The notes beneath the pieces were generated by a model. The model did no database searches, was not told the DNA's origin, and was given only the letters and a program-made list of their open reading frames with translations. Source: Candidatus Daviesbacteria bacterium (GTDB taxonomy: Bacteria > Patescibacteriota > Microgenomatia > Daviesbacterales > UBA10151). From it: a DNA stretch of 64,000 nt. The translations under genes were made by a program, and so were the position numbers. Positions within the stretch are counted from its first letter, which is position 1, and every line of letters begins with the position of its first letter. Shown here piece by piece: positions 2,464 through 25,561 of the stretch. The DNA lies in contig JACPKP010000003.1 of NCBI GenBank assembly GCA_016186955.1, positions 2,290-66,289 on the forward strand. Reading direction: 5' to 3'.

Positions 2464-2602
2464 TGGGAATTTTGTTTTAGAGGTCAGAACTGTTAAAATT
2501 TAAAGTAAGCAGGAACAATGTTACGAGTTTTGCGGTTCGTCTTGCCCTACGAATTCTTGTTGATAGGTTCAGGTGCGAAGCGCGTAAATGTTAATTTTTC
2601 CT

Positions 2603-2678
2603 GCCGTCGTAGCTCAATGGACAGAGCTACCCCGTCCTAAGGGGTAGGTTGGAGGTTCGATTCCTCTCGACGGCGCCA
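2603..2678 (+). tRNA. tRNA-Arg (anticodon CCT)
   Basis: Acceptor GCCGTCG/CGACGGC, D-arm GCTC-AATGGACA-GAGC, anticodon stem ACCCC/GGGGT with loop GTCCTAA (CCT), T-arm GGAGG-TTCGATT-CCTCT, discriminator G, encoded CCA. Confidence 0.8.
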
Positions 2679-2679
2679 A

Positions 2680-3366: not shown

Positions 3367-3421
3367 GCAAATTTTAAATTTCGAATTTTAAATTAAAAAT
3401 TATTGTTGTACAATAAAAGAT

Positions 3422-5620: not shown

Positions 5621-6123
5621 TTGAACAAACATTAGTATTGATAAAACCTGATGGTGTAAAACGCAGTTTGATCGGTGAGATCATTAAAAGATATGAAAGC
5701 GCTAGTTTGATCGTGGTTGACCTTAAATTGTTGCGGGCTGAAAAAGATATTGTTGGCCAGCACTATCCCGAGGAAGATGAATATATGATCTCATTAGGTA
5801 AAAAAAGCGCTGCTGCCGGGGATGAGGTTGGTGATTTTAAAGAGCACGGTAGGATGATAGTAAGGGCTTTGAGGGAGTATATTACATCCGGTCCTATTGC
5901 CGCGGTAGTGTTAGAAGGGGATGATGCTATAGCCAGAGTCCGCAAAATTACAGGCTACACAGACCCCAAATCTGCAGACAAAGGGACAATAAGGGGAGAT
6001 TTAGGGGAGGACTCAATACTGGAAGCAAACCGTGAGAAAAGACCGGTGAAAAACCTTATTCACGCATCCGGTACGATGGAGGAAGCTAAAAGGGAAATTA
6101 AGCTTTGGTTCCCGGACGCGTAA
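5617..6123 (+). CDS. ndk: nucleoside diphosphate kinase
   Basis: 'TLVLIKPDGVKRSLIGEIIKRYE' and the active-site region '...IHASGTMEEAKREIKLWFP' (N-x-x-H[AG]SD-type). Carries a lineage-typical internal insertion. Overlaps the upstream gene by 4 nt. Confidence 0.75.
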   Translation: MIEQTLVLIKPDGVKRSLIGEIIKRYESASLIVVDLKLLRAEKDIVGQHYPEEDEYMISLGKKSAAAGDEVGDFKEHGRMIVRALREYITSGPIAAVVLEGDDAIARVRKITGYTDPKSADKGTIRGDLGEDSILEANREKRPVKNLIHASGTMEEAKREIKLWFPDA

Positions 6124-10011: not shown

Positions 10012-10317
10012 TTAGATTAACTGTTTTAGTTCAAAGTCAGGGAAGAGGAGCCTTTTTAGGTCCAACTGATGCTTTTGTCCTATTTGCAGGGCTTCCAGGA
10101 CTGTTTTTACGCCTTGCAGGTTAATGCCCCGCTCATGGGTTAGAAATTTTACAAACTGCAGCTCTTCCAGGTTTTTGATAGAGTACATCCTCCTGTTTGT
10201 CCCTGTCCGAAATGGCTTAAGGAAACCCTCATTTTCATAAAGCATCAGGGTCCTCGGATGCAGTTTTAATAAACTTGAGGCTACAGAGATTGTTAAGATA
10301 GGTTCTTCTGTGCGCAT
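10012..10317 (-). CDS. MerR-family HTH transcriptional regulator
   Basis: 101 aa. The N-terminal 'ILTISVASSLLKLHPRTLMLYENEGFLKPFRTGTNRRMYSIKNLEEL' matches the MerR HTH (..TLR.YE..GL..P.R...g.R.Y). Divergent from the giant gene across a 650-bp AT-rich region. Confidence 0.7.
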   Translation of the reverse strand: MRTEEPILTISVASSLLKLHPRTLMLYENEGFLKPFRTGTNRRMYSIKNLEELQFVKFLTHERGINLQGVKTVLEALQIGQKHQLDLKRLLFPDFELKQLI

Positions 10318-10972: not shown

Positions 10973-13900
10973 ATGTCTGCCAAATTAACTGCCAAGGAGC
11001 GCACAAAAGTTATTAAAAGGGCCCTGAAGGGGGAAAACATCTCCGGGCTTTGCAGGGAATATAAAATCTCCCGCACCCTGCTTTACCGTTGGATCAACCG
11101 CTGCAAGCTTGCACAAAAAAAACGTGAGGAAAGACAACTTAGGCCCCAGGACAGGCAGGAGATGATTGAAAGGGTCAAACTGGGGGAGAATGTTGCAAAA
11201 GTTTGCTCTTTATATAATGTATCAAGGACTGCCTTTTATAAGTGGCTGGAAAGGTATGAGCAGGCGCCTGAGGGTCATAAACTTGAAGCTTTATGGGATA
11301 AACAACCCAAAGTAGAACGGTATTTTAATCAAGCTTCAGAGGAATATGAAGAAGCAGTCCTGTCTGCAGTCCGGGAGTATCCAGAGCTTTCATCCCACAA
11401 ACTGGTTTGGGCTTTGCCCCAGGTTGGCGGTAAACCTATATTATCCAACCATGGCGTCCAAAATGTCCTGAAAAGGCATAGCTTAAATACTTATGGACTA
11501 CGCTTGGCATATTCAAAAGCCTACTACAAACCAACCGCACTCTCGCGTTTTTTTGCTTTCATCCAATCTGTTTTGGCAGCCGTTACTGCCCAGCCGGCCC
11601 AAAGAAGGAATGTCCTGGTGCGGGGCAGCTTTGTTTTTGCCCTGACAATCTTTTCCCTGGTTACGGTTTACGGATTATTCTCGCTCTCCAGATTGGTTTT
11701 GGGGGCGGGTGGTGTGGCACTTTCGTTAGGCTTAATACTTTCCCTGATAGCCTTGGGTTTTGGCATGTTTTTCTTCCTCTATTCGCTTAAATACTACATT
11801 ACTATAGCAATGGTGCTGTCATTTTCCAGGAGAAGCGATGAAGAAAATCTCAAATCTCAAAACTCAAATCTAAAATCTGCATCTCAAATCTTAAATCCTA
11901 ATCATCAAAGAAAGTCATTTCTGCAAAACATTCAAGGTACAGGCCGGGATGATGTTATCAAATATCAGGGCGGGTTGGGGCTTAAAGCAGATTTATCAGG
12001 TGTAATTTTAGACAGGCAGCCTTTTGTCTCCATCCACTTGGCTACATATAATGAAAAAAGGGTTTTGGAAAGGTTGCTGACAGCAGCAACCGCCCAGGAA
12101 TATGAAAACTACGAAGTAGTCATAGTTGATGATTCAACAGAACAAGAAAGCATAGATATTTTAAATAAATGGAAAAAACACCCCAGGGTTAAAGTCATCC
12201 ACAGGGAGAGCAGGGAAGGGTACAAGGGGGGGGCGCTCAGGGAAGCTTTAAAAATTAGCAGCCCGCGCACGGAGTTTGTCCTGGTATTTGATGCTGATTT
12301 TATACCATACCCGGATACAATTACCTCATTTTTGAAGTACTTCAAGCTCACAGTTGGGAACCTGGAAACAAAACATTCAACCTCTAATGTCGCTGCAGTG
12401 CAGGGCTACCAGTGGCATGTGCTCAATAAATCAGAAAACTGGATTACCAGAGGGGTAAAAAGCGAATATTCCGGTTCTTATGTCATCGAAAGGTCAGGTG
12501 AGGAGCTGTATTCAGGGTTAAAACAGATTGCAGGCTCGGTATATATGATCAGGGCGGATGTGTTAAAGGAATTGGGTTGGGGGACATCAATTACTGAGGA
12601 TTTCCAGCTGACATTAAGGCTTTATGAAAGGGGATATAAGGTAGTCTTTACCCCATACATACAGGCCCCGGCAGAGGCAGTCTCCACCATCAAAAGGCTA
12701 ATCCGCCAGAGGATGAGGTGGGCAGAGGGACATTCACATAACATCAAAAAGATGCTGATCCCGCTGCTAACCTCAAAAAACCTGACTTGGGCTGAGAAAT
12801 TTGAGGTTTTATACTTGACCCCATATTACCTGCAGGCAGCTTTTTTCATCTTCGGTACCCTGTGCTGGTTTCTGGCTGAGGTGGTTTTCAGGGTCACATT
12901 GCCATTTTGGACTTCCACCTGGGGTTGGTCCCTGGTTTTGACCAACCTGTTTGCCCTGCCCCTAATGAACCTGGTGGGGCTGTTTTTGGAAGAGAGTAAT
13001 GAAAAAGACTACCTGGGGCTGCCTGCCTTTATGGCCCTCTCTTATGTGGTTGCGCCTTTCCAGGGCTATGCAGCCATCAAAGGGTTTTTGGAAAAAGAGG
13101 AAGGGCCATGGTTTAGGACCCCCAAAACAGGCAGGATTACAGATGTCTTTACCCCGGGAAAGTTGTACAAGTTTGTATTTGGCTGGTTGGGTAAAACAGT
13201 CAAACATTCTGCCAATCCCGCCATAGGCCAGATCAACAGGATGTATTCCCAGGAGCAGCTGGCCGAGTTTGCTGCCATGTCGGAAGATAATGTCACCCTG
13301 AGTGAAACGAAGGGTATAAATATATCCTTCGCTAACGCTCAGGATGACAGGGGAAGAATATATCAAACCCAACCAAATGTGGTTGTCCTGGCTATATCAA
13401 AGGCAGTCAGCAAATTAACCGTAAACCAATTTTCAATTTTTATTTTTCAATTTTTAATGAATTTTCAATGGTTCAAAAGATTAAATTCAAAATTAAAAAA
13501 GATTGCCGCGTCGCTCGCTTTGCTCGCGCCTCGCAATGACGGAGGGAGGAGTCCTCATCTGGCTGTTTCCTCCTCCTTTAACACCTTTAATTACTTTAAA
13601 TCCCTTAACAGCCTTAACCACCCTGTCCCTGCTCCCAACAGGCTGGTGGGAAAAATAATCCTGGCCTCTTTTGTTATTGTGTTTATCCTGTTAAACCAGG
13701 CAGCGCTGTTTAACCAATACACTGTAGATTTGCGCCATATGAGTATCAAGGCAAAAGAAGGGGGCCCAATCTCCAGGAAACTGGCTGCCGGCGCACCCCT
13801 GCCCATAGACCCCACGATTGAACAGCAGATTAATATCACCACCCAGGAATATTCCACCCAAAGCATAACAGATATGCCCACAGATAACTCCTTAGGCCTG

Positions 13901-16900
13901 GTGCGCTACACTGCAGCCTCATATACCTCACCCACCACTTATTTTGAGGCAGTCATCAAAAACTCCAACTCCTCAACCACCACTGCTTCCTTGTATGATT
14001 CAACAGGGGCTTATGTGGCAGGCTCAGCTGTCACAGCCACAGGAGCAACATATACCAGGGTCAGGAGCGCTGCAATTACCCTGACCACAGGTACTGATTA
14101 TACTGTCAGACTTAGGTCCTCGCCGGGAAACGGCGCCATATCTTCAGGCACAGCCTCAATCATCGCAGCCAGGATTATAGTGGTCCAGGCCACTGATTCC
14201 AATATTACCAACACCGAGACCCAGGTAGAGGTGGGGGATAATGAGACTACCAGCAAAGTAGACCTAACCCCGCTTTCAAACCCCAAGTATTTTAAGTTTG
14301 ACCCCACCAAATATGATGCAGGCTCTATCACAGCATATTTTGAGGCAACTTTAAAGGCAAGTAATAATACACCCGCTGCTACCTCTACCGGCCCCAATAG
14401 TCCATCTTCCTGCGCTGATGACGGGGCAGTTGGGACACTCACTTGGACTAATGATTCAAATGCTACTGCCCAGGACGACCAGACTGCCGTAATGCAAGGT
14501 ACGGATAATGGAACATCAGAATATGAGGAGTGTGTAGGTTTTAGTTTCAACCTGGCACCAACGGACACAGTAGCTGGGGTGCTTTTGGAGGCGGATATCT
14601 ATTCAAGCGGGACATCAACGCGGCCGATCATTGATAATTCTGTCAAATTGTCTCAGGCAGGCACAATTACCGGCAATGATCAGGCTACAACAGACGCCTG
14701 GCCTACCTCAGATACTGACACCTACACCTCATGGGGTTCATCAAGTAACCTTTGGGGGGTAAGCTGGACACCTGCCGATATCAATGACCCAAACTTTGGG
14801 GCAGGTATCTCAGCCCGCAAGACTACTACCGCAGGGAATCCCGGAACCGGCAAAATTGACCATGTCAGGATGACAGTTTATTATACCCCTGCTGCCGCTG
14901 CACAAACAGCCACAGCGGAACTTTACAACAGGACAGACGGCCTGGCTGTAACAGAATCATCAGTTTCCACATCAAACCTTACCTGGACAAGGGCACGTTC
15001 ATCAGCCCTTTCCACCAATTGGGATACCACCAATGCTGATGAGTATGAGGTCAGGGTAAAAACATCAGACACAACAGCCAATGCCTCCATAGCCAATGCC
15101 AAGGTAGTATTGGTGCAAAATGTGGCCGGGGGGATTGGCAATGTAGAACTATACCATAACTATATCAATGCCCCAGAGAGTCAAAACAGCGCATCGGTTG
15201 GTACATTTAGCACTACCAACCAGGGGCAGATACCGTTAGTAAGGATGCAGGGGAGCTCTGTTATAAACACCATTGGTTCTTCCACCTACGTTTATGTTTT
15301 AGGCGGTTGTAATGCAGCTTGCTCCAGCACCACAGACACGTCCACAGTTTATAAATCAACTATCAATAATGTAACCGGGGATGCCGGTGTGTTCAGCACT
15401 ACTTCCCAGGGCCAGTTGGTTACAGAAAATAGTGATAATGCGGTTGTTACATCATCCTTGGGCGGGACTACATATATATATGAAATCGGGGGGGATAACG
15501 GGGCGAGGAAATCTACCGTATACAAAGCAAGTATCAACTCATCAGGTGATATTGGAACTTTTGCTACCACCAGCCAGGGCCAGATGCCAGCGATATTGGG
15601 TTCTATATCATCAAACAGTATAACAGTAGGTCCTTCCTCATATATTTATATATTGGGGGGTGCGCCTGCAACCGGCCAGTCTTCCACTGTCTATAAATCC
15701 ACCCTAAACTCCTCAAATGGTGATGCAGGCGCTTTTGCCACCACCTCCCAGCAACAGTTGCCTATAAAAGTTAGGGACCACACGTCGGTTTCTACAACCG
15801 TCGGCCCATCTACATATATTTATGTGGTTGGCGGGGAAAGCGCTGCTTTCAGTAGCGCGGTTTACAAATCCACAATTGACAGCTCGGGGGATGTCAGCGC
15901 TGTTTTTGCCACCACCTCCCAGGGGCAGTTACCGCAAATAAGCAGCCAACATTATGCAGTCCTTACTGCAGTTGGCCAATCAACTTATTTATATACTATG
16001 GGAGGAAGCCCGGATGGCGGGACTACGGTTGTCTCCACTGTCTATAAATCCACCCTTGACAGCGCCACAGGTGATCTGTCAACTTTTAGCACCACTAACC
16101 AGCAACAACTGGTTCCGCTTACTTTTGGTCTGTCAGCTAATGCTGCGTTGGTAGGCCCCTCCACCTACCTGTATGTTTTAGGGGGGTACAACGGCAGTAG
16201 TGCTCTATCTACTGTCTACAAAGCCCCCCTCTCCAATGATTTTGACTCTTTTGGCTATAACAACCTGTACAATTCTAATGACTGGATAGGGGGGACATTT
16301 ACTTTTTACCAGGAATCAACCCTAAAACAGACTCAGGCAGGCGTGACAGCCAACTCCAGGCTTACCCCGGGGGGGATTGGCAATGTCTCATCAACCCTGA
16401 TGCCCAACGCTGCAAATGGCAATTTCGGGGTTTTTGCCACCACTTCCCAGGGACAGGTGCCAGAAATTAACTCCAACTTATCCAGCAGTACAGCGATGGT
16501 TAACGGGTCAACATATATTTATGTTTTAGGCGGTAATAATGACAGTGCAAACCAATCCACAGTATATAAGTCCACTGTCAATTCTACAACAGGTGATGCA
16601 GGCGCTTTTGCCACTACCTCCCAGGGACAGCTGCCCCAAATCTTGGAAGGTTTACAGACGCGTTCTTTGGCAGTGGGCAGCTCCACTTATATATATACCC
16701 TGGGTGGGTACACAGGGACAGCATATAAATCTACTGTCTATAAATCCACGCTGAAAGCAGCATCAGATAGCACCAATGGTGATGCAGGCGCTTTTGCCAC
16801 CACCTCCCAGGCCCAGTTGCCGCTTACCAATGGCAACTTTGGCAGCACAATCCTGACTTCAGGCGCCTCAACCTATATTTATGTTATAGGCGGTGCCAGT

Positions 16901-19900
16901 ACCGCCTCCGTTTCTTACAGCACTAATTACAAAGCGCTAATAGACCCTACAACCGGTGATATAGGCGCTTTTGCCACCACTTCCCAGGCCCAGTTGCCGG
17001 CAGCAGGACAAAGGCTTGGCGTAACCTCAGCTGTGATCGGGCCGTCTTCTTATTTATACGTAGGGGGGGGTTGCAGCGGTTGCGGCACCCCTGTGTCAAC
17101 TTTTTATAAAGCCACCATCGACCCTACAACCGGTGATATCGGGACATTAGCTACCACTAACCAAGCGCAGCTGCCTACTGCATTGCGCCAGTTCAATATT
17201 ACATCCACCATTGTCGGCCCTTCTACCTACCTGTATGTTTTCGGGGGCTGCACAGGTGGCGTAAGCTGTGGTAACCAATCCACTGTCTATAAATCCACCC
17301 TAAACTCCTCAAATGGTGATGCCGGCACATTTGCCACCACCTCCCAGGGGCAGCTGGCCCAGCCTCTGATTTGGGTTGGCGGGTCAGGGGCAATAGCTTC
17401 AGCCGGGCCGTCAACTTATTTATATGTATTGGGCGGGCTAAATACATCAAGCGTTTCTATATCCACTGTCTATAAATCAGCCCTGCAGCAAAACCCTTAT
17501 GAACGCCAGCGCTCAGGGGATATCACAAGCTATCTTAATGGGTCACTTGCAGCCAATGCCGGCACATTTGACACCACCAACCAGGCCCAGCTGCCAAAAA
17601 TGTTTCGTCAGCATTCAGCAGTTTCAACGCAGATAGGTAACTCAACATATGTTTATGTGTTGGGTGCATTTACGGATCTTTCTAGTGTATTATCCACAGC
17701 CTACAAATCAACTCTGGATAATAATACTGGTAACCTTAGCCTTTTTAATACAAGTAATCAAGCACAATTATTACAAGCTTTCAGGTTGGCAGCAACCACT
17801 TCTTTGTCAGTTGGTGTATCAACCTATGTTTATGTTCTAGGAGGTTTTACATCCTCTGCAAATATATCAACAGTATATAAAAGTACTATCAATAGCGCCA
17901 CGGGGGATTTGGGAACATTTGATACTACTTCCCAAGGACAAGTCCCACAGGCATTGCGGTCACACACCATAAATAGCGCCCAAATAGGCGTCTCAACATA
18001 TATATATGTTTTGGGAGGAGTTAATACAGGAGGAAGTGATATTTCAACAATTTACACCTCTACGGTCAATAGCGCCACGGGGGATTTGGGAACATTTGAT
18101 ACTACTTCCCAGGCACAGTTACCTAGGGTTGGATCAAGCTTTGCCTCAATTACACAGTCAGTTGGCCCATCAACATATCTTTATGTAATTGGAATACAGG
18201 GCAATACTTCTGTCTATAGGTCCGTAATTAACAGTACTTCAGGTTATTTAGGGGTGTTTGATACAACATCTCAAGGTCAGTTAGTGCAAAATACCACTCA
18301 ACATAGTGCAATTGCAACTGTTTTAGGGCCATCAACTTATATTTATGTATTGGGAGGAAGCAGTATGTCGACAATATACAGAGCAGCGTTAAATTCAAGC
18401 ACTGGAAATATCAACACGTTCACTACTACTTCTCAATCACAACTACTGAACATTTCCCGGGAAAATACTGCAATTATTGCGAATACCGGCCCTTCTACTT
18501 ATATATTTCAATTGGGTGGTTTTGATAATGGGAGTTCAACAACATTTTCAACAGTCTATAAATCAGTCCTCACAGAAGACCTGACCCCGGGCAATTTAAA
18601 TGTTATCCAGACCACTTACCAGGGCCAGCTTCCCGCTGCCCTTTCTTCCCATGCCACAGTTGTCGGGCGGGACCAGGGCGTAAATTATATCTATCAGCTG
18701 GGGGATAACCCCGCATCAACTGTCTATAAATCTGCCATAGATGCCAATGGTTACGCCGGCACCTTTGCCACTACCAACCAGGCCCAGCTTACCCAAACCT
18801 TGAAAAACCTCCAGGCAGTCTCTGCCAGTTATGGCGGCACTACCTATATCTATACCATAGGCGGGGACAACGGCAGCGCCATTACCTCAACAGTCTACCG
18901 GGCCAATTCAAATGGCACCAGCGGGAATTTAACTGTAGCTTTTGCAACAACCAGCCAGGCCCAACTGCCCCAGGGCCTGCAAAACCACCAGGCTGTGATA
19001 GGTGCAACCTCAGGTGACAACTATATTTATGCTTTGGGGGGGTGCAACTTAACTGGTTTTTGTGCTGCATCCAGCACCCAATCCACTGTTTATAAAGCAA
19101 ATATTAAAGTCTCTGCAGATGCCCAAACCTTTGCCACTACCAGCCAGAAACAACTGCTTAAAATTAGTGAGGCGCCTGCTTCTGTTACTGCCACAATGGG
19201 GTCTTCCACATACGTTTATGTATTGGGAGGATATGATCAGGGCGGTGTTATAAACTCTACTGTCTACAAAACAACCCTCAATTCCACAACCGGTGATGCA
19301 GGCGCTTTTGCCACTACCAGCCAGGGGCAATTAGTCGTTGGTTTACAGTACCAATCAGCTTTGGTTTCAACAATTGGCTCCTCCACCTACCTTTATGTTT
19401 TAGGGGGGTATAATGGATCTGATCTCTCCACTGTCTATAAAACAACCCTAAATTCCACAACAGGTGATATAGGCGCTTTTGCCACTACCAACCAGGGACA
19501 ATTAGTGCAAATTAATGAGTCGCACGCCTCTGTTACTACCGCAGTAGGCCCCTCAACCTATGTTTATGTATTGGGGGGAACCAGTGATGGTGGCACAACT
19601 ATCTTCTCCACAGTCTATAAATCCACCATAAATTCCACAACAGGGGATATAGGCGCTTTTGCCACTACCAGCCAGCAACAGCTGCCGGCGCTGAGAGAGA
19701 AACTTGCTTCTTTTGTAGCCGCAATGGGCCCCTCAACTTATGTTTATGTACTGGGAGGGGCTGAAGCCAGCGTCAAATCCACAAACTATAAGGCTACTTT
19801 AAATGCCTCAGGGGATATAGGCGCTTTTGCCACTACCAGCCAGGGACAGTTGCCAAATATTATATATATGCATAGCGCGATCACTTCAACTATTGGTTCT

Positions 19901-21937
19901 TCAACGTATGTCTATGTGTTAGGTGGGAATACCGGTAGCGGTGTCATTTCCACAGTCTATAAATCCACCCTAAATTCTACAACAGGTGATTTAGGCGCTT
20001 TCGCCACTACCAATCAGGCACAATTGTCCCAGCCTTTTTGGCGGCATTCCTCTGTTATCTCTGTACTGGGCCCTTCAACTTATTTTTATATTTTGGGTGG
20101 TTGTGATAATAATTCTTGTACTGCTTCGACAGTCCGTTCCACTGTCTATAAATCAGCCCTCAATACTGACCCAATTGTCCAAACCTTTGCCACCACCTCC
20201 CAATCCCAACTGCCCCAGGTAGTTAAAAACTTCTCTGCCAATTTTACAACAATTTTAGGCACAAATTATATTTATGCCATAGGGGGGGACAGTGGGGCCA
20301 GCTCAGGTACAGGTGATGCAGGCACATTTGACACCACTTCCCAGGGGCAACTGCCGCTTGATGTTAATGCCTACAGACCCTTTAGTGTGAATATAGGTGC
20401 ATCTACTTATGTCTATGTAGTTGGTGGATTTTCCGGCAGCCTCAATAATAAATTGTCTACCAACTACAAAGCTACATTAAATAATACAACCGGTGATGCA
20501 GGCACATTTGCCACCACCAGCCAAGCACAACTTCCTACTGCTTTGAGGAATCACGCCTTGATTAGCACAACAGTGGGCATCTCAACTTATGTTTATACAA
20601 TAGGTGGGGAGAACATCTCCACGGTCTATAAATCCACTATTGTTGGGTCCGGCGCTAATGCCGGCGATCTTGGTACATTTGCTACCACTTCTCAGTCTCA
20701 ACTGCCTGAGGCTAGGAAACAATTGCCGGCCGCTTTGGCCGCAATAGGGTCATCTCAGTATGCTTATGTGGTTGGAGGTTATAATGCTAGCGGTACCAAT
20801 AAATCTACAGTATATAAAGTCAGTATAAATAGTTCATCCGGCGATCTTGGTACATTTGATACCACTTCTCAGTCTCAATTACCCCAAGTCTTGGCTGCTC
20901 ACTCACTGATTGTTCAAACTATTGGTTCATCTACTTATCTTTACGCCGTAGGGGGAGAAAATGGCGGTACTAAATACAGCACCAACTACAAAGCTACATT
21001 AAATAATACAACCGGTGATGTAGGCACTTTTGACACCACCAGCCAGGGACAATTACCCCGCTCTCTGACAAGCTCTACCGCTATTAATGTCAGCGTCGGG
21101 AGCTCATCCTATATTTATGTATTAGGAGGGGATCCGGGAGGTCTGGCAGTATCCACTGTTTATAAAACTACTATTAATGGCACAACTGGTGATGCAGGCA
21201 CATTTGCCACCACCAGCCAGGCCCAATTAATCCGTACTAATGCACAAAATACGGTTTTAACATCAACTGTTGGCCCTTCCTCTTATCTCTATTTCATCGG
21301 GGGTTGTTTGTCCACTAATGGTTGTGCAAATAGTGAAGTGCAGTCTACAGTCTACAGATCCATCTTAGGTTCAACCAAAATAGCAGAATCTACTGTTTAC
21401 AAATCTACTGTAGATTCAAGCGCCAATGTGGGGAGTTTTGCCACCACTGCCCAAACCCAGCTCTCCACTGCCCTGCAGTCCCACGGAACTGCTTTTTTCC
21501 AGAACAGCTCACCCTACCTTTATGTTATAGGCGGGTGTGTTTTTGGAGGTACGCCATGTGGCATAGCAGATACCCGGCAGACAATTTATAGGACTTCCAT
21601 TACTTCCTCGACCGGAGATGTGGGGGCATTTTCCTACTCTGCCAACGGGCTGCCCATAGTTTTAAACAAACTTACAACTACAACTGCCACCTTAGGCGCC
21701 ACCACCTACCTGTATATCTCAGGGGGGGCATTGGGGACAACAGACCAGTCCACATTTTACCAGTCCAGGATCTCCAACTCTGAATTTGACACCCAGATCC
21801 AAAATGCCACAGTCGCCAATTCCTGGCTGGTTGTAGATGTATCATCACTCCAGATCCCCGAGAACCTGCTGGGGTTTTTGCCATTAGGATTATTGTTACC
21901 CAAACTGATGAAAAAGTTCCGGAGGCAAAAAGATTAA
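10973..21937 (+). CDS. Giant (3654 aa) multidomain surface protein: IS481-like transposase HTH region, membrane-embedded processive GT2 glycosyltransferase, ~36 tandem Kelch-like beta-propeller repeats, PEP-CTERM-like (PEN-CTERM) sorting tail
   Basis: Single uninterrupted ORF. aa 1-170 contain two transposase-type HTH motifs ('ISRTLLYRWINR','VSRTAFYKWLERY') plus a 'VQNVLKRHSLN' HTH_32-like segment. TM helices follow. The GT2 domain ('VSIHLATYNEKRV...VVIVDDSTEQ...FDADF...RQRMRWAEG...WFRTPKTG') is followed by cellulose-synthase-like C-terminal TMs. An anchor helix 'GKIILASFVIVFILL' precedes a Ser/Thr-rich region and the repeat '...ST(V)YKSTLNSTTGDAGAFATTSQGQLP..(h)SAV(s)T.VGPSTYIYVLGG...'. C-terminus: 'QIPENLLGFLPLGLLLPKLMKKFRRQKD'. 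Confidence 0.75.
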   Translation: MSAKLTAKERTKVIKRALKGENISGLCREYKISRTLLYRWINRCKLAQKKREERQLRPQDRQEMIERVKLGENVAKVCSLYNVSRTAFYKWLERYEQAPEGHKLEALWDKQPKVERYFNQASEEYEEAVLSAVREYPELSSHKLVWALPQVGGKPILSNHGVQNVLKRHSLNTYGLRLAYSKAYYKPTALSRFFAFIQSVLAAVTAQPAQRRNVLVRGSFVFALTIFSLVTVYGLFSLSRLVLGAGGVALSLGLILSLIALGFGMFFFLYSLKYYITIAMVLSFSRRSDEENLKSQNSNLKSASQILNPNHQRKSFLQNIQGTGRDDVIKYQGGLGLKADLSGVILDRQPFVSIHLATYNEKRVLERLLTAATAQEYENYEVVIVDDSTEQESIDILNKWKKHPRVKVIHRESREGYKGGALREALKISSPRTEFVLVFDADFIPYPDTITSFLKYFKLTVGNLETKHSTSNVAAVQGYQWHVLNKSENWITRGVKSEYSGSYVIERSGEELYSGLKQIAGSVYMIRADVLKELGWGTSITEDFQLTLRLYERGYKVVFTPYIQAPAEAVSTIKRLIRQRMRWAEGHSHNIKKMLIPLLTSKNLTWAEKFEVLYLTPYYLQAAFFIFGTLCWFLAEVVFRVTLPFWTSTWGWSLVLTNLFALPLMNLVGLFLEESNEKDYLGLPAFMALSYVVAPFQGYAAIKGFLEKEEGPWFRTPKTGRITDVFTPGKLYKFVFGWLGKTVKHSANPAIGQINRMYSQEQLAEFAAMSEDNVTLSETKGINISFANAQDDRGRIYQTQPNVVVLAISKAVSKLTVNQFSIFIFQFLMNFQWFKRLNSKLKKIAASLALLAPRNDGGRSPHLAVSSSFNTFNYFKSLNSLNHPVPAPNRLVGKIILASFVIVFILLNQAALFNQYTVDLRHMSIKAKEGGPISRKLAAGAPLPIDPTIEQQINITTQEYSTQSITDMPTDNSLGLVRYTAASYTSPTTYFEAVIKNSNSSTTTASLYDSTGAYVAGSAVTATGATYTRVRSAAITLTTGTDYTVRLRSSPGNGAISSGTASIIAARIIVVQATDSNITNTETQVEVGDNETTSKVDLTPLSNPKYFKFDPTKYDAGSITAYFEATLKASNNTPAATSTGPNSPSSCADDGAVGTLTWTNDSNATAQDDQTAVMQGTDNGTSEYEECVGFSFNLAPTDTVAGVLLEADIYSSGTSTRPIIDNSVKLSQAGTITGNDQATTDAWPTSDTDTYTSWGSSSNLWGVSWTPADINDPNFGAGISARKTTTAGNPGTGKIDHVRMTVYYTPAAAAQTATAELYNRTDGLAVTESSVSTSNLTWTRARSSALSTNWDTTNADEYEVRVKTSDTTANASIANAKVVLVQNVAGGIGNVELYHNYINAPESQNSASVGTFSTTNQGQIPLVRMQGSSVINTIGSSTYVYVLGGCNAACSSTTDTSTVYKSTINNVTGDAGVFSTTSQGQLVTENSDNAVVTSSLGGTTYIYEIGGDNGARKSTVYKASINSSGDIGTFATTSQGQMPAILGSISSNSITVGPSSYIYILGGAPATGQSSTVYKSTLNSSNGDAGAFATTSQQQLPIKVRDHTSVSTTVGPSTYIYVVGGESAAFSSAVYKSTIDSSGDVSAVFATTSQGQLPQISSQHYAVLTAVGQSTYLYTMGGSPDGGTTVVSTVYKSTLDSATGDLSTFSTTNQQQLVPLTFGLSANAALVGPSTYLYVLGGYNGSSALSTVYKAPLSNDFDSFGYNNLYNSNDWIGGTFTFYQESTLKQTQAGVTANSRLTPGGIGNVSSTLMPNAANGNFGVFATTSQGQVPEINSNLSSSTAMVNGSTYIYVLGGNNDSANQSTVYKSTVNSTTGDAGAFATTSQGQLPQILEGLQTRSLAVGSSTYIYTLGGYTGTAYKSTVYKSTLKAASDSTNGDAGAFATTSQAQLPLTNGNFGSTILTSGASTYIYVIGGASTASVSYSTNYKALIDPTTGDIGAFATTSQAQLPAAGQRLGVTSAVIGPSSYLYVGGGCSGCGTPVSTFYKATIDPTTGDIGTLATTNQAQLPTALRQFNITSTIVGPSTYLYVFGGCTGGVSCGNQSTVYKSTLNSSNGDAGTFATTSQGQLAQPLIWVGGSGAIASAGPSTYLYVLGGLNTSSVSISTVYKSALQQNPYERQRSGDITSYLNGSLAANAGTFDTTNQAQLPKMFRQHSAVSTQIGNSTYVYVLGAFTDLSSVLSTAYKSTLDNNTGNLSLFNTSNQAQLLQAFRLAATTSLSVGVSTYVYVLGGFTSSANISTVYKSTINSATGDLGTFDTTSQGQVPQALRSHTINSAQIGVSTYIYVLGGVNTGGSDISTIYTSTVNSATGDLGTFDTTSQAQLPRVGSSFASITQSVGPSTYLYVIGIQGNTSVYRSVINSTSGYLGVFDTTSQGQLVQNTTQHSAIATVLGPSTYIYVLGGSSMSTIYRAALNSSTGNINTFTTTSQSQLLNISRENTAIIANTGPSTYIFQLGGFDNGSSTTFSTVYKSVLTEDLTPGNLNVIQTTYQGQLPAALSSHATVVGRDQGVNYIYQLGDNPASTVYKSAIDANGYAGTFATTNQAQLTQTLKNLQAVSASYGGTTYIYTIGGDNGSAITSTVYRANSNGTSGNLTVAFATTSQAQLPQGLQNHQAVIGATSGDNYIYALGGCNLTGFCAASSTQSTVYKANIKVSADAQTFATTSQKQLLKISEAPASVTATMGSSTYVYVLGGYDQGGVINSTVYKTTLNSTTGDAGAFATTSQGQLVVGLQYQSALVSTIGSSTYLYVLGGYNGSDLSTVYKTTLNSTTGDIGAFATTNQGQLVQINESHASVTTAVGPSTYVYVLGGTSDGGTTIFSTVYKSTINSTTGDIGAFATTSQQQLPALREKLASFVAAMGPSTYVYVLGGAEASVKSTNYKATLNASGDIGAFATTSQGQLPNIIYMHSAITSTIGSSTYVYVLGGNTGSGVISTVYKSTLNSTTGDLGAFATTNQAQLSQPFWRHSSVISVLGPSTYFYILGGCDNNSCTASTVRSTVYKSALNTDPIVQTFATTSQSQLPQVVKNFSANFTTILGTNYIYAIGGDSGASSGTGDAGTFDTTSQGQLPLDVNAYRPFSVNIGASTYVYVVGGFSGSLNNKLSTNYKATLNNTTGDAGTFATTSQAQLPTALRNHALISTTVGISTYVYTIGGENISTVYKSTIVGSGANAGDLGTFATTSQSQLPEARKQLPAALAAIGSSQYAYVVGGYNASGTNKSTVYKVSINSSSGDLGTFDTTSQSQLPQVLAAHSLIVQTIGSSTYLYAVGGENGGTKYSTNYKATLNNTTGDVGTFDTTSQGQLPRSLTSSTAINVSVGSSSYIYVLGGDPGGLAVSTVYKTTINGTTGDAGTFATTSQAQLIRTNAQNTVLTSTVGPSSYLYFIGGCLSTNGCANSEVQSTVYRSILGSTKIAESTVYKSTVDSSANVGSFATTAQTQLSTALQSHGTAFFQNSSPYLYVIGGCVFGGTPCGIADTRQTIYRTSITSSTGDVGAFSYSANGLPIVLNKLTTTTATLGATTYLYISGGALGTTDQSTFYQSRISNSEFDTQIQNATVANSWLVVDVSSLQIPENLLGFLPLGLLLPKLMKKFRRQKD
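15190..21790 (+). repeat. Coding tandem array of ~36 Kelch-like ~60-aa repeats (~180 nt period) inside the giant gene
   Basis: Reiterated 'STVYKST(L/I)NSTTGD(A/I/L)G(A/T)FATTSQ(G/A)QLP' plus '...VGPSTY(I/L/V)YVLGG' units, seen directly in the translation. Copies are divergent at the DNA level but some are near-identical (e.g. 19255-19330 vs 19435-19500). Confidence 0.8.
21854..21934 (+). other. C-terminal PEP-CTERM-like sorting signal (PEN motif - TM helix - basic cluster) of the giant protein
   Basis: 'IPEN' + 'LLGFLPLGLLLP' + 'KLMKKFRRQKD' mirrors the tripartite PEP-CTERM architecture (PEP - hydrophobic - Arg/Lys-rich). Confidence 0.6.
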
Positions 21938-21955
21938 ATATGCTAAGATACACGA

Positions 21956-22375
21956 ATGAAAACGAATCAGGAACGAATCAAAACGAATACTTTAGTGTAT
22001 CCAGAGCTCAGTTTTAAAATTATGAACGTCCTTTTTAAGGTACATAATATGTTAGGATCAAAATTGCAGGAAAAATATTACCAGAGAGCAATTGAGATTG
22101 AGTTTCAAAAACAAAATATTCTATTTGAAAGAGAAAAGATGATCCCACTAAACTACGAAGAAAATAGTATCGGTAGATACTTTATAGATTTTGTGATTGA
22201 AGATAAAATTGCGCTTGAAGTAAAAGCTGCAGATTATTTCAAGAGAGGTTTTACTATCCAAGTTTTGGCTTATTTAAACTCGGGTAACTTTAAACTTGGA
22301 ATTATTGCAAACTTCAATTCGAACAAGGTACTGTTTAAAAGACTTATTAATCCGGAATATGATAAAAAGCATTAG
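21956..22375 (+). CDS. GxxExxY family protein (PD-(D/E)XK-like)
   Basis: 139 aa. 'YPELSFKIMNVLFKVHNMLGSKLQEKYYQRAIEIEF...GRYFIDFVIEDKIALEVKA...QVLAYLNSGNFKLGIIANFN' matches the GxxExxY family layout (G.xLxExxYxxAL..EL). Confidence 0.7.
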   Translation: MKTNQERIKTNTLVYPELSFKIMNVLFKVHNMLGSKLQEKYYQRAIEIEFQKQNILFEREKMIPLNYEENSIGRYFIDFVIEDKIALEVKAADYFKRGFTIQVLAYLNSGNFKLGIIANFNSNKVLFKRLINPEYDKKH

Positions 22376-22416
22376 TTTATATTTGTTAAAAAATTCGTTT
22401 ATATTAGTATTATTGT

Positions 22417-23115
22417 ATGAACACAAAACGTGAGACTTTTTCCACCCTTTTTATAATCTTGGTGGCGATGCTGGTTTTTTTACCCTTTATTACTACTTTC
22501 CAGGATATATTAACGCGCATTATTTTACACTTTGATACGTATAAAGCGTTACAGAGCATAGTAGTGCCTTATGAACTGAAAGTCCTGGCAGCTGTTTTAA
22601 ACTTTCTGCACCTGCAGACTGAGGCCGGGCCCTCTTACATCCAGTTTATGCGGGATGGCAAAGTTGAGGTGATATATTTGGCTTGGAATTGCATAGGCTG
22701 GCAATCTTTACTGTTTTTGCTGGTAACCCTGGTCACCGGGCTGTCGGGAAAGTATACTCGGATGAGCAAATTCCAGGCGTTTTTAGTGGGGATATTGGGG
22801 ATTTACCTGATCAATATTTTCAGGATGACGCTGGTGGTGGTTATTTATTACTTTAGCGGGCGGGGGCTTGGCAATGTGTTCCATAATTATTTCTCCAACC
22901 TGCTGTCAATCTCATGGCTGTTTTTATTCTGGTGGATGGCGTATAAGTATATTTTGGAGGAGGTTGGAATTTATCCTAAAGGCAATAAAGCCGTATTTAA
23001 AGGAAGATTTTTAAAGCTGTATGGTAGAATAAGCGCAAAAGTTAAAGCGAAAAGTGCAAAACTAAAGCTGAAAGTTAAAAACTTAAAATTATGGGAAAAA
23101 ATAAAGAAGAATTAA
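22417..23115 (+). CDS. exosortase/archaeosortase-family protein (small CPR-type)
   Basis: 232 aa polytopic membrane protein with the conserved Cys in 'LAWNCIGWQSLLFLL' and Asn/Arg in 'LINIFRMTLVV', as in the exosortase/archaeosortase active-site helices. The lysine-rich tail 'KVKAKSAKLKLKVKNLKL' is encoded by an AT-rich heptamer array. Two genes downstream of a protein with a PEP-CTERM-like tail. Confidence 0.6.
   Translation: MNTKRETFSTLFIILVAMLVFLPFITTFQDILTRIILHFDTYKALQSIVVPYELKVLAAVLNFLHLQTEAGPSYIQFMRDGKVEVIYLAWNCIGWQSLLFLLVTLVTGLSGKYTRMSKFQAFLVGILGIYLINIFRMTLVVVIYYFSGRGLGNVFHNYFSNLLSISWLFLFWWMAYKYILEEVGIYPKGNKAVFKGRFLKLYGRISAKVKAKSAKLKLKVKNLKLWEKIKKN
22990..23095. repeat. AT-rich heptamer array (aaagYNa units), left flank of four-helix-bundle gene
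   Basis: 'gcaaaagttaaagcgaaaagtgcaaaactaaagctgaaagttaaaaacttaaaa'. It is partially complementary to the array at 23440-23505 (e.g. 'ctgaaagttaaaaac' vs 'gttttgaactttcag'). Confidence 0.55.
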
Positions 23116-23456
23116 AATACAGAGCTTACAAATTTTCTATCAAAATCATCAAGTTTTCCGCTACTTTGCCAAACCAAAGAGTTTATTGGATTATGGGTGA
23201 TCAATTACTGAGGTCTGCGACTTCGATTGGAGCAAATATTATCGAGGCGCAAGCTGCATCAAGCAGGAAGGATTTTATTAGATTTTACGAAATAGCGCTC
23301 AAGTCGGCAAATGAGACAGGGTATTGGTTAGCGCTTTTAAGGGACGGAACTGAGATTGATAATGATGAAATAAATCAACTACTGGAGGAAACAAAACAAC
23401 TAGCCAAAATTTTAGGGGCTAGTTTGCTAACTTTAAAAAGTAAAAGAAAGTTTTGA
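23091..23456 (+). CDS. four-helix-bundle protein (23S rRNA intervening-sequence protein / Avd-like family)
   Basis: 121 aa. 'ELKYRAYKFSIKIIKF...LRSATSIGANIIEAQAASSRKDFIRFYEIALKSANETGYWLALL' is the hallmark of the TIGR02436-type four-helix-bundle family. Confidence 0.75.
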   Translation: MGKNKEELKYRAYKFSIKIIKFSATLPNQRVYWIMGDQLLRSATSIGANIIEAQAASSRKDFIRFYEIALKSANETGYWLALLRDGTEIDNDEINQLLEETKQLAKILGASLLTLKSKRKF

Positions 23457-23506: not shown

Positions 23507-25561
23507 ATGATACAAACTGTCTTGGCTCTCTCCCAATTCTTTATCAATAACTTCCCTCCGCCAGCTGGCGGATGGTGGTACCCATACTGGTATTTGGGCA
23601 ACCCTTACCATTATCTGATAGGGCCGGTGGTGCCAATAATATTGGCAATTATAAATTTCAAATTTCAAATTTCAAATTTTGGATTTCCAATATATTTAGG
23701 GTTGCTGGGAGTGTCATGGGTGGTTGGAGGAGTGGGGGTGTATCAGCTGGTAGAAAAGCTATCTCAAACCTCAAATCGCAAATCTCAAATCCTTTATGCT
23801 TTACTATTTATGTTCCTGCCCTTCTCGTTGTTTCTTTTGGCTTACTCAAATGGGTTGTATCACTTTGCCTGGGGGTTTTTGCCATGGGTTTTTGTGGTAT
23901 TTTTACGCTTTCTTGTCGGATCTCCCATGTCATTGCGAGACCACAAAGTGGCGAAGCAATCTAATTTAATAAAGATTGCCGCGCTCCCTTCAGTCGCTCG
24001 CAATGACGAAGAAAAAAAGGGCATAAAAATTGCCCTGTTGCTTAGTATTTTGGTATCCTTTGTACTGTTGGTAGATGTTTCGATACTGCTTCCAATGCTG
24101 GTAGGGTTTGTTTGTTTAGGGGTGGTAATCAAGGATATTAAAGGAGTTAAGGGAATTAATGGGGGCGGGGAATATCAGGTTTTTAAAACTTTCTTTGTAT
24201 TATTGTTTGCCCTAAGCCTGGCTACAATCTGGTACACACCCGGGTTTTGGCTGACCCTGTTGCAAAACCCCTCATTTGGTGGGATGCCGCTTGTTAATTT
24301 GGGGAAATTTTTATTCCAGCTGCTTTTGAACCTGGTCCCTATCCTGGCAGCGGTTTGGGTGGTCAAGCTGAGAATGAAAAATTTGTCCCGGACAGCATAC
24401 TTCGGGCTGCTTTTTTTGTCATCATTTCTTTTTCTTACTATAATAAGGTATTTATCTGATCCTGATTTTGTGCAGGACTGGATCGGGTTTTTTATAGAGA
24501 TCCAGTTTGGGTTGGCGATTTTGCTGGGCTCTTTTTTGTCATCCTCGCGTATGCGGGGATCTTTTAGAAGATTGATTCCCGCTTTCGCGGGAATGACAGT
24601 ACTATTGGTATTTATTGTAAAAGGTTGGATGGGTGGCGAAAATGTAAAATATCAATCCAAGATTGTATCCATGCTGAAAAATGTGCCCAAAGACGAGCGG
24701 GTGTTTCTTTCAGGCACAAGCGTTTTTTGGGCTAACCAATACCTTGATATTATACAGGTGAGGGGAGGGGTAGACCAGGCATCAATCCATCCTTACTGGG
24801 CTGATGGGGCATACCAGATTAGGGAAGGGGAAAATAGTGAGTTATCTTTAAACTGGCTTAGGGCTTTAGGCGTAAGCTGGATTTTAGTGCATAGTGGAGG
24901 GTCAGATGAGCCTTACAGGGATTTTAAGCGCCCTGAGAAGTTTACCCAAATTTGTCATCCCCGACTTGATCGGGGATCCATTTTGGAAAAGGATCCTCGC
25001 ATTCGCGAGGATGACACAATATGTAAGATTGTTAAGGGAATTAAGGGGGATACTCTATATAAGGTAGGCGGGGCAAGCATTGCCAGGGTGGCTGATAAAT
25101 CAATATTGGAGGTTAAAAAACCAAAAAACGGCGCAGATGCCCAAACATTGGCAAAATATGTCAACACCTTCAAAATACACCCCGGGGGTTCACCCCCGGG
25201 GTGGGAAAACAGGCCTGGCTTTACGAACGTAATTGAGGTAGATGCTGATTTGGGAAAGGATGAGGTGATCTCTTTGGCGATTGCCTATGACAGGGGATGG
25301 CAAGTTCAACAGTTCCACCCGGGGGGTGGAACTGGAGGAGTGAGGCTGGTCAAAGATAATCTGGGTAATATAGTTTTGATACCTGGTGCAGTCGGCCGGA
25401 TCAGCTTGAGCTTGGTTTATCAGACCCCGGTTTGGGAGAGGGCAGCGCCTGTTTTGATATCTTTGGTGCTTCTTTTTATATTGGTAAATTATGATAAATC
25501 CTATCCCGGGATGTCCCGAATCCTGGCTAAGGTGGGGCATGGATTAGGGGAGGAAGAATAA
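23507..25561 (+). CDS. large polytopic membrane protein (possible GT-C-like) carrying multiple in-frame mini-element insertions
   Basis: 684 aa, many TM helices ('WWYPYWYLGNPYHY' N-terminal region). In-frame copies of heptamer repeats (ISNFKFQISNFGF at 23640-23700), a GTCAT-family half element (23966-24006), two hairpin MITEs (24537-24597, 24954-25015) and caccccgggggtg palindromes (25178-25204, ~25318-25335). Confidence 0.5.
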   Translation: MIQTVLALSQFFINNFPPPAGGWWYPYWYLGNPYHYLIGPVVPIILAIINFKFQISNFGFPIYLGLLGVSWVVGGVGVYQLVEKLSQTSNRKSQILYALLFMFLPFSLFLLAYSNGLYHFAWGFLPWVFVVFLRFLVGSPMSLRDHKVAKQSNLIKIAALPSVARNDEEKKGIKIALLLSILVSFVLLVDVSILLPMLVGFVCLGVVIKDIKGVKGINGGGEYQVFKTFFVLLFALSLATIWYTPGFWLTLLQNPSFGGMPLVNLGKFLFQLLLNLVPILAAVWVVKLRMKNLSRTAYFGLLFLSSFLFLTIIRYLSDPDFVQDWIGFFIEIQFGLAILLGSFLSSSRMRGSFRRLIPAFAGMTVLLVFIVKGWMGGENVKYQSKIVSMLKNVPKDERVFLSGTSVFWANQYLDIIQVRGGVDQASIHPYWADGAYQIREGENSELSLNWLRALGVSWILVHSGGSDEPYRDFKRPEKFTQICHPRLDRGSILEKDPRIREDDTICKIVKGIKGDTLYKVGGASIARVADKSILEVKKPKNGADAQTLAKYVNTFKIHPGGSPPGWENRPGFTNVIEVDADLGKDEVISLAIAYDRGWQVQQFHPGGGTGGVRLVKDNLGNIVLIPGAVGRISLSLVYQTPVWERAAPVLISLVLLFILVNYDKSYPGMSRILAKVGHGLGEEE
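24537..24597. repeat. Hairpin MITE, GTCAT...ATGAC family (in-frame in CDS)
   Basis: 'gtcatcctcgcgtatgcggggatc-ttttagaa-gattgattcccgctttcgcgggaatgac'. Terminal inverted repeats plus the internal hairpin cccgc-tttc-gcggg. Encodes 'SSRMRGSFRRLIPAFAGMT'. Confidence 0.6.
24954..25015. repeat. Hairpin MITE, GTCAT...ATGAC family (in-frame in CDS)
   Basis: 'gtcatccccgacttgatcggggatcc-attttggaaaa-ggatcctcgcattcgcgaggatgac'. TIR gtcatcc/ggatgac and two internal hairpins. Confidence 0.6.

Follow-up and report, generated by a model that had tools for sequence, protein, structure and literature searches.

Why should a bacterium described as a tiny groundwater organism carry a single gene that joins transposase-type helix-turn-helix (HTH) motifs, a family 2 glycosyltransferase (GT2), a long array of Kelch-type repeats and a tail resembling a sorting signal, with an exosortase-like gene close downstream? 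The question is raised by a stretch of 64,000 nucleotides (henceforth the window; GenBank assembly GCA_016186955.1, contig JACPKP010000003.1, positions 2,290 to 66,289) from a metagenome-assembled genome (MAG) of Candidatus Daviesbacteria, which belongs to the Microgenomates group of the Patescibacteria. An earlier note on this DNA, made without database searches, had taken the giant gene for a one-off chimera. On other points we largely agree with that note. The answer that we favor, with a probability of roughly 65%, is the following: in bacteria of the candidate phyla radiation, a gene of the giant's kind and an exosortase-like gene make up a dedicated module for surface display of the exosortase type, and the window holds the largest example seen. 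The unit of interest is the family-wide module rather than the single giant protein. The features on which the argument turns are the following.

10973..21937, + strand: giant precursor gene (3654 aa), a single uninterrupted frame with HTH motifs, GT2 synthase, internal signal-anchor, passenger and PE-type tail
10988..11488, + strand: two transposase-type HTH motifs (aa 6-172; Pfam, NCBIfam), predicted to be cytoplasmic, without a DDE domain
11615..11827, + strand: N-terminal hydrophobic helices before the GT2 (aa ~215-285; Kyte-Doolittle peaks at aa 220-284)
12008..13126, + strand: processive-type GT2 catalytic domain with the following membrane helices and a WFRTPKTG motif (aa 346-718; Pfam, motifs)
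13610..13717, + strand: signal-peptide-like helix (aa ~880-915; hydrophobic peak at aa 895-913), predicted to move the chain out of the cytoplasm
13763..15151, + strand: pre-repeat passenger module (aa 931-1393), starting with DPTIEQQINI and rich in Ser and Thr (together 27%)
15152..21793, + strand: 36 Kelch-type repeats (aa 1394-3607) in six groups of six, predicted to be extracytoplasmic
21836..21937, + strand: tripartite tail (aa 3622-3654; read from the sequence), composed of SSLQI-PE-N, the helix LLGFLPLGLLLPKLM and KKFRRQKD before the stop codon
22417..23115, + strand: exosortase/archaeosortase-family membrane enzyme (232 aa; TIGR04178), with a core of ~185 aa and a Lys-rich C-terminal helix

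The modules are indeed joined in one open reading frame (ORF), since 10973-21937 is open throughout, and NCBI also annotates one gene here (MBI2595268.1, 'glycosyltransferase', likewise 3654 aa). The protein is a singleton cluster at 90% identity. The notion of a one-off chimera has to be given up, because a whole family, with more than 700 homologs detected, is built from HTH, GT2, passenger and tail as its standard arrangement. At least 733 significant homologs were found with aa 1-950 of the giant as the query. The best 120 of these are 599-1634 aa long and come from Patescibacteria; nearly all match the HTH and GT2 Pfam families of the giant, and more than 100 of the listed homologs combine HTH, GT2, passenger and tail in one ORF. 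The HTH-GT2 join is kept family-wide, and such homologs carry the JGI label 'cellulose synthase/PNAG synthase-like glycosyltransferase/transposase'. Relatives without HTH, which have the same exosortase pairing, occur in MAGs labelled Chloroflexi, Dormibacterota and Eisenbacteria. The giant is the largest seen member of this big Patescibacteria family, and it belongs to the 'DPTIEQQ' subfamily, with an insertion of 36 Kelch-type blades. Its close relatives at loci L001, L002 and L003 have the same tail and the same Kelch-like repeats (4, 17 and 11 visible, respectively). Locus L003, from an independent Curtissbacteria MAG, has the GT2, the pre-repeat module, 11 Kelch-like repeats and the tail in one frame, and a GxxExxY gene and an exosortase gene lie 3' of this ORF.

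Assignment of the product of 22417-23115 to the exosortase/archaeosortase family, which the earlier note had based on conserved Cys and Asn/Arg helices, is confirmed by profile searches. The hidden Markov model (HMM) TIGR04178 (exo_archaeo) matches it with 38.8 bits (cut-off 23), and NCBI names it 'exosortase/archaeosortase family protein' (MBI2595270.1). Eight diverse relatives, including the fusion protein P0266 discussed below, score 28-39 bits with the same model, all above the cut-off, and PF09721 is precomputed on many enzyme homologs. In 26 aligned homologs, W90, N91, C92, G94, W95, Q96, N133, R136 and H156 are invariant; the motifs are WNCxGWQ (with Cys92), NxxR (with Arg136) and H(D)Y (with His156). 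The triad C92/R136/H156 is thereby kept, and absolutely conserved Cys, Arg and His residues define the exosortase family (PMC1569441). In the AlphaFold2 model, which has a mean confidence score (pLDDT) of 86.8, six long helices and one beta-hairpin are followed by a C-terminal amphipathic helix. Neither a Foldseek search with this model nor a sequence profile gave a match in the PDB, consistent with the absence of a solved exosortase structure.

The HMMs for named subfamilies all score below their cut-offs: ArtC 27.8-39 (cut-off 100), XrtX 18-31 (170), XrtG 18-20 (102.75), thaumarchaeosortase 33 (250), CrtC 35 (225) and EpsH (TIGR02602) 19.7 (105.55). Its signature match, triad and membrane character place the window enzyme in the exosortase/archaeosortase superfamily, and these scores place it outside all named subfamilies. 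The relatives are numerous: when 1.84 billion cluster representatives were searched with the enzyme profile, 572 matched at E <= 1e-3, and 204 still did at E <= 1e-10. The last part of the window enzyme (aa 186-232, 22972-23115) is a Lys-rich extension of ~45 aa, modelled as one long helix, that overlaps the next gene by 25 nt; it is found in the window enzyme and its closest relatives, and is missing from most of the family. Other family members have extensions of their own. The representative P0224 has an extra C-terminal class I methyltransferase domain, and P0239, P0252, P0255, P0261, P0265 and P0300 have ~250 extra C-terminal residues of unassigned sequence.

The giant ends with SSLQIPENLLGFLPLGLLLPKLMKKFRRQKD, directly followed by the stop codon, and the PE pair is at aa 3629-3630. 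The order of elements is SSLQI-PE-NLLGFLPLGLLLPKLM-KKFRRQKD, with a hydrophobic helix of ~16 residues. The family tail HMM matches this tail with 17 bits (E 9e-4), as the sole match among the window ORFs, and the tails at L001-L003 are orthologous to it. A strict tail pattern is present in 69 of the 120 listed homologs, and most of the others are truncated or have a longer conserved cytoplasmic end. The consensus reads T-[IV]-P-E-[NK]-x-[LIV]-[LF]-[LF]-[LI]-x-x-A-P-F-[IL]-P-x-[IM]-V-L-W-[LM]-K-K-R-[RK]. P-E is its sole invariant pair, and PD and DE variants also exist. When the tail HMM was run on ~700,000 aa of six-frame ORFs, the significant matches were all 0-48 aa from a stop codon. In the loci and the window, they were confined to the C-termini of GT2-family ORFs or their fragments, and ~1.1 Mb of related loci contained no other complete tail-bearing ORF. 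A search with a tail alignment found no match at E <= 10 among 5.8 billion proteins, so the single-target status of the tail applies to the ~1.1 Mb of loci. For eight other tail types, the curated CTERM models gave a single match close to threshold: a sister tail (type C) scores 15.7 bits with the PEP_CTERM model TIGR02595, 0.3 bit short of the cut-off of 16. The earlier description of the tail as PEP-CTERM-like holds for the order of motif, helix and basic cluster, which is conserved in homologs, but not at the level of curated CTERM models, none of which matched. Conservation of the motif across homologs also argues that the tail is not a plain transmembrane anchor.

Some family members deviate from this scheme. 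A GT2 subfamily that includes P0078, P0091, P0107, P0131, P0135, P0139 and others, as well as L085, has 'PE(I)P' before the helix and a '...LDxLPV' extension after it; it may use the helix differently. In L033, the ORF upstream of the exosortase (3-2261) has a duplicated sorting signal, since two PE tails follow each other at its end (FEFSTLPENVLIYIIALPVLAGLIRKFFYDSTKSELEFETVPENILLIIVLFPVLSRLVSRYRKKR). In L011, the GT2-family gene (14-4582) has the 'PD' tail variant FEFAPLPDFSLILIVILPVLPRLLRKIHRRRC. An ORF of 71 aa that is hardly more than a PE tail (7010-7225) lies between this gene and an exosortase gene 5.4 kb downstream, and may be the remnant of a lost paralog.

The case for a functional pair comes from the linkage of the two genes. 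One genome per species was scanned with the enzyme, which gave 186 confirmed matches, and 79 loci were fetched. Of 84 exosortase copies that could be assessed, 52 have an ORF on the same strand that carries a PE tail and ends ~0-900 bp upstream (one match lies farther off). These 52 ORFs comprise 29 intact GT2 genes, 5 frameshift-split GT2 genes, 14 ORFs cut by contig ends and 4 without GT2, two of which are spurious pattern matches; where the N-terminus is visible, the tail-bearing ORF is a gene of this GT2 family. The distance from the GT2 stop to the exosortase start is 0-60 bp in most loci, with occasional overlaps, and the gene order is fixed. The association also holds in the reverse direction. 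Six GT2 homologs were picked only for the length of their contigs; in five cases, a homolog of the enzyme (E 1e-56 to 8e-71) starts within 90 bp of the GT2 stop, and one of the loci holds a second GT2-enzyme pair.

Two cluster representatives, P0266 (946 aa) and P0282 (1227 aa), are single chains in which GT2, passenger and 'EVPEN' helix are continued by the exosortase domain, and the P0282 fusion is seen in two independent assemblies (JGI and ENA). Similarities among tails and among enzymes co-vary, with a Mantel r of 0.55 that none of 2000 permutations reached, a correlation that is confounded by phylogeny. Single MAGs can hold two pairs of different types (L003/L030, and L021); in the former MAG, the L003 and L030 enzymes are 60% and 37% identical to the window enzyme, respectively. 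Two-way adjacency, single-chain fusions and tail-enzyme co-variation together support the earlier proposal, at the sequence level, that the downstream exosortase-like gene is the cognate partner of the giant, a sorting substrate fused to its own GT2. As a separate observation, a conserved protein of 256-333 aa lies between the GT2 and exosortase genes of four loci with 'FEFxxVPEK'-type tails (L017 9107-9970, L021 8272-9039, L044 3574-4419, L046 8973-9971). It ends with '...KRIYINGVLK...' and has no Pfam match.

The cytoplasmic and membrane parts of the giant are best described by their profile matches. Its aa 6-172 match HTH_28 (52 bits), HTH_23 (44 bits), HTH_29 and the N-terminal part of IS481. 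The IS481 model NF033577 scores 66 bits against a cut-off of 224 and covers only profile positions 2-108 of 284, as expected from the earlier reading of an IS481-type DNA-binding N-terminus without DDE domain. The giant as an IS481-family transposase is ruled out on the same grounds. GT2 Pfam families match aa 346-673 (Glyco_tranf_2_3 with 81 bits). The motifs DDS386, DAD440, TED541, QRMRW579 and RTPK715 form a full set and, with the flanking helices, bear out the prediction of a membrane-embedded processive GT2 with QRxRW and RTPK motifs. The nearest solved relatives are BcsA, of which aa 272-531 align, and chondroitin synthase. The GT2 stays below every equivalog cut-off, including those for PgaC (94.8 bits, cut-off 422), CelA (62, cut-off 699) and NodC (38, cut-off 550). 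It shares the D, DxD, TED and QxxRW motifs and the placement of the catalytic domain between membrane helices with BcsA, PgaC/IcaA, NodC and the hyaluronan and chitin synthases. In comparison with synthases of the BcsA/PgaC type, the family adds an N-terminal HTH region and, at the C-terminus, an exported passenger that ranges from 150 to over 2700 aa.

The passenger is led by a hydrophobic helix that has the features of a signal peptide in most of the family. A K/R-rich n-region precedes this helix in 124 of 129 family members, and [AVSTI]-x-A follows 4-13 aa after the h-region in 118 of the 129, most often at 7-8 residues, compared with a background of ~52% in shuffled c-regions and control helices. 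Sites in relatives include ...EVLA|TN, ...AFA|AT and ...TYA|AAPDPTIEQQ. Since this n-h-c pattern is the signature of a signal peptidase I substrate and the topology fits, it suggests that the typical family product may be a polyprotein, which signal peptidase I would resolve into a synthase and a conventional sorting substrate. The latter would resemble PEP-CTERM proteins, which likewise begin with a signal peptide and end with a sorting tail (PMC1569441).

The passenger of the giant starts with the pre-repeat module (aa 931-1393), which has no Pfam match and is kept in a subfamily of 16 sequences that includes L003, L062, P0103, P0111 and P0082. It is followed by 36 full repeats, which measure 54-76 aa (mostly 54-63 aa) and are divided into 6 x 6 by three partial closing strands. 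Kelch_1 matches three of the six blocks of six repeats with 30.3, 31.3 and 36.3 bits (Pfam cut-off 20.1). In an AlphaFold2 model of the repeats (pLDDT 62), each repeat has four strands, and the top structural matches are all beta-propellers, with only ~2 blades superposing on known propellers. Of the earlier suggestion of ~36 Kelch-like blades, enough for ~6 propellers, the number and type of blades stand, but closure of six-bladed rings was not confirmed. The repeats resemble those of Kelch propeller proteins in length (~57 aa), GG doublet and conserved aromatic residues, but here 36 blades follow one another on an extracytoplasmic, Ser/Thr-rich bacterial protein. Ser and Thr make up 28% of the passenger, which has few charges; this composition and the signal-peptide-like element fit exported sorting substrates (PMC1569441). 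The repeats have diverged at the DNA level (Tandem Repeats Finder reports 77% identity over only ~2 copies), and a collapsed or expanded repeat assembly is unlikely for this reason. A recent repeat expansion was also rejected, because of this divergence and because L001-L003 share the repeats.

These elements could work together as follows. The HTH motifs would be in the cytoplasm and the GT2 glycan synthase in the membrane, and the signal-peptide-like helix would export the rest of the chain. By analogy with ArtA and PGF-CTERM proteins, and with the PEP-CTERM model, the PE motif would be placed at the outer membrane face and recognised there by the exosortase-family enzyme. The enzyme would then cut off the tail helix and pass the new C-terminus of the passenger to an acceptor, either a lipid or a glycan. 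In most members, signal peptidase I would split the product, giving synthase and sorting substrate in a 1:1 ratio at the same membrane site. The archaeal precedent is experimental: ArtA cleaves the PGF-CTERM tail in a manner that depends on its conserved residues, and a substrate with a fusion-created internal signal is still processed (PMC6098224).

Several observations weigh against this model. About one third of the exosortase copies have no tail-bearing ORF directly upstream; among these, some have the GT2 gene downstream (directly so in several loci) or kilobases away, and some have PD or DE variants. The tail of the giant does not match curated CTERM models even at E <= 10, and its motif is PEN, not PEP. 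Inside the membrane, the tail helix has a conserved PF(I/L)P, which would suit a structural helix better than a disposable one, and some subfamilies run 35-50 aa past the helix to the conserved '...LDxLPV' end. One locus of this kind, L085, has no exosortase in the ~900 bp of available downstream sequence. The c-region of the giant itself, LLNQAALF, is non-canonical and was scored 'n' on the AxA test, and the AGA that aligns with the site of the relatives is ~30 residues farther out and followed by Pro. Since its signal peptidase site is degenerate, the giant may stay attached to its synthase. Finally, exosortase cleavage has been directly shown only for the archaeal ArtA (PMC6098224).

The main rival explanation takes up some of these points. 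It holds that the tail helix is a permanent part of the protein that repacks in the membrane against the synthase helices or the exosortase-like protein, the latter being a structural or a lipid- or glycan-handling subunit of the synthase complex. A permanent helix would account for the PF(I/L)P inside it and for the conserved cytoplasmic extensions, which cleavage would remove, and the single-chain exosortase fusions are equally compatible with a permanent complex. However, an invariant Cys/Arg/His triad is not expected of a purely structural subunit. Only P-E is invariant in the tail, at the outer face and exactly where sorting motifs lie, and one tail type nearly matches the PEP-CTERM model. 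Overall, a permanent helix appears unlikely.

A second possibility is that the linkage merely reflects the usual clustering of exosortases with exopolysaccharide genes, in which they are classically found (PMC1569441), and that the real substrates are encoded elsewhere in the genome, with the GT2 tail as an ordinary anchor. Of this genome, our view covers 64 kb, and of the others, pieces of 20 kb, which also counts against the module, and the tail search among 5.8 billion proteins gave nothing at E <= 10. Loose clustering does not sit well with a fixed gene order and stop-to-start distances that are often 0-60 bp or negative, nor with the fusions of GT2 and exosortase. It would also leave unexplained that ~1.1 Mb of related loci hold no other complete tail-bearing ORF, and that paralogous pairs in one genome differ in both tail and enzyme. 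We consider this explanation improbable, and more so than a permanent helix. A false join of a repeat protein, a GT2 gene and part of a transposase, made in assembly or annotation, for which the MAG origin, the long repeat array and the singleton status at 90% identity could be cited, is very improbable in view of the more than 100 homologs with HTH, GT2, passenger and tail in one ORF, the same in-frame join in the independent L003 MAG, the 17 repeats with tail at L002 and the divergence of the repeats at the DNA level.

The surface-display module can be compared with known sorting systems. With PEP-CTERM/exosortase systems (EpsH, XrtA), it shares P-E at the membrane face, the hydrophobic helix and the basic cluster of the substrate, a polytopic Cys/Arg/His enzyme, Ser/Thr-rich exported substrates and a link to polysaccharide genes (PMC1569441). 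It differs from them in having PE[NK] and, in the clade of the giant, never PEP, in an enzyme core of ~185 aa with ~5-6 helices instead of the 8 or more of EpsH, and in a lone neighboring target, which forms one chain with a GT2 synthase, in place of numerous scattered targets. Moreover, Patescibacteria are generally regarded as lacking an outer membrane, unlike the Gram-negative hosts of PEP-CTERM systems. Operation at a single membrane is shared with the archaeosortases. The enzymes of the family bear their best subfamily-level HMM resemblance to ArtC of the ArtC/PEF-CTERM system (28-39 bits, yet far from the cut-off of 100). In contrast to archaeosortase systems, however, the hosts are bacterial, the tail motif is different and the substrate is joined to an enzyme in one chain.

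The nearest analogue in organisation is the neighborhood of XrtG of Firmicutes (TIGR03110, model length 187), a small exosortase of a one-membrane cell that is encoded beside a GT2 (TIGR03111). A large GT-C-like membrane protein is also often found near XrtG. The GT2s of the family score only 23-30 bits with the model for the XrtG-associated GT2 (cut-off 364) and are not members; by NCBIfam, they fall outside the XrtG- and XrtP-associated glycosyltransferase families. We know of no sorting tail or target assigned to the XrtG-associated GT2. A literature search found no paper on exosortases in Patescibacteria or Microgenomates or on HTH-GT2 proteins, and the terms exosortase and 'candidate phyla radiation' were mentioned together only in one hot-spring virus study, each once. 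The impression that a synthase-fused sorting substrate had not been described before is upheld by the lack of a curated model or paper, and the GT2-exosortase module is apparently an undescribed, widespread surface-display system. C-terminal sorting by an exosortase-family enzyme is of an already known kind. Unusual are the substrate in one chain with a processive synthase, the internal signal peptide that probably resolves the two, and the dedicated, co-diversifying and sometimes fused pairs.

The remaining genes of the window contribute less to the argument. Those closest to the two genes are listed first.

10012..10317, - strand: MerR-family regulator (Pfam MerR_1, 56.5 bits), divergent from the giant
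21956..22375, + strand: GxxExxY / PD-(D/E)XK_3 protein, MBI2595269.1 (TIGR04256, 102 bits, cut-off 35)
23091..23456, + strand: four-helix-bundle ('23S rRNA IVS') protein (TIGR02436, 102 bits), overlapping the exosortase stop by 25 nt
23507..25561, + strand: 684-aa polytopic membrane protein without a Pfam or NCBIfam match

The genes that follow the giant are on the same strand and tightly spaced, with gaps of 18 nt (before the GxxExxY gene), 41 nt (before the exosortase gene), -25 nt (before the four-helix-bundle gene) and 50 nt (before the gene for the 684-aa protein). No terminator-like site was found on the + strand between the giant and the downstream genes, and Rfam and tRNA scans of the region gave nothing. 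The MerR gene is a recurrent accessory of the module: in 10 related loci with MerR homologs, all are divergent and located 311-1175 bp upstream of the GT2 gene. The GxxExxY gene is present ahead of the exosortase gene, as the earlier note had seen, but we rejected it as a part of the system and regard it as an incidental insert, because just 4 of 85 loci (L003, L010, L023 and L082) have a homolog of it. The four-helix-bundle gene has homologs in few loci, and was likewise rejected as probably incidental. Homologs of the 684-aa protein are found in 40 of 85 loci, but only in 12 of 82 less than 400 bp after the exosortase gene, and in 23 of 82 within 3 kb of it. This protein is better described as a frequent neighbor than as a core component. 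It is possibly a GT-C-like glycosyltransferase; two of its relatives have weak YfhO / PTPS_related matches.

Farther downstream (25919-28372), the window encodes an 817-aa protein with six delta-60/DUF5122 beta-propeller repeats, a PKD domain and a post-COAP-1 domain. It matches the candidate-phyla-radiation pilus protein PamR weakly, and has homologs at the same relative position in L001 and L003. Upstream of the giant, a classical sortase (2641-3366), a PEGA-domain protein (3392-4606) and a nucleoside-diphosphate kinase (5617-6123) were recognised, the kinase from its translation only. The three genes are also neighbors in L081, with the PEGA gene on the opposite strand. With this sortase and the exosortase-family enzyme, the genome has both kinds of sorting enzyme. 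The regions 28387-56627 and 63399-63998 encode at least 10 paralogous polytopic membrane proteins of ~560-765 aa with TPR repeats and a conserved C-terminal domain of ~90 aa, '...KLQFFLFKG..VIKI.VYPADSPLM..F...L.S...', interspersed with PMT_2, YfhO-like, carbamoyltransferase and C-methyltransferase genes; the whole looks like a very large envelope-glycosylation island. Two adjacent TPR paralogs are split at the same point into fragments of ~180 aa and ~570-595 aa with overlapping frames (32647-33201/33029-34813 and 34806-35333/35206-36912), and a 252-nt direct repeat of 87% identity is located at 32902-33153 and 35079-35330. They could share a frameshift, either programmed or decayed.

What the module could mean is best seen against the state of the exosortase field. 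Exosortases were discovered two decades ago, and the bacterial ones are still largely uncharacterised biochemically. To our knowledge, neither the acceptor molecule nor the reason why exosortases are found in polysaccharide loci is known. A review of 2018 noted that bacterial exosortases had not yet been analysed experimentally (PMC6098224). Here, glycan synthase and sorting substrate are in one gene and the sorting enzyme is in the next gene or in the same chain, so that three players are hard-wired. This arrangement argues that the synthase and its substrate have to work at one site and in equal copy number. Since some members have less than 800 aa, the module also offers a compact two-gene system for reconstitution. 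If the internal signal peptide is cleaved, the family would represent a rare case of a bacterial polyprotein that is resolved by signal peptidase.

A bolder extension is tentative, and we think it more likely to be wrong than right. It would make the module a self-contained device for protein-glycan conjugation, in which the exosortase joins the passenger C-terminus at the PE motif to the polysaccharide extruded by the GT2 of the same chain, while the membrane-tethered HTH motifs and the divergent MerR regulator couple assembly to transcription. In that case, the minimal envelope of the bacterium would bear a covalently glycan-anchored surface layer or adhesin, and the two-gene versions, or the one-gene versions P0266 and P0282, would be the first minimal system for identifying an exosortase acceptor.

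For the organisms, the consequences may be considerable. The surface-display module assigns a role to a large unnamed 'glycosyltransferase/transposase' family, the genes of which are among the largest in small Patescibacteria genomes. Much of the cell surface probably consists of HTH-GT2 proteins. Patescibacteria, as episymbionts, presumably depend on attachment, which is mediated by this surface, and it may be speculated that the giant takes part in attachment to a host.

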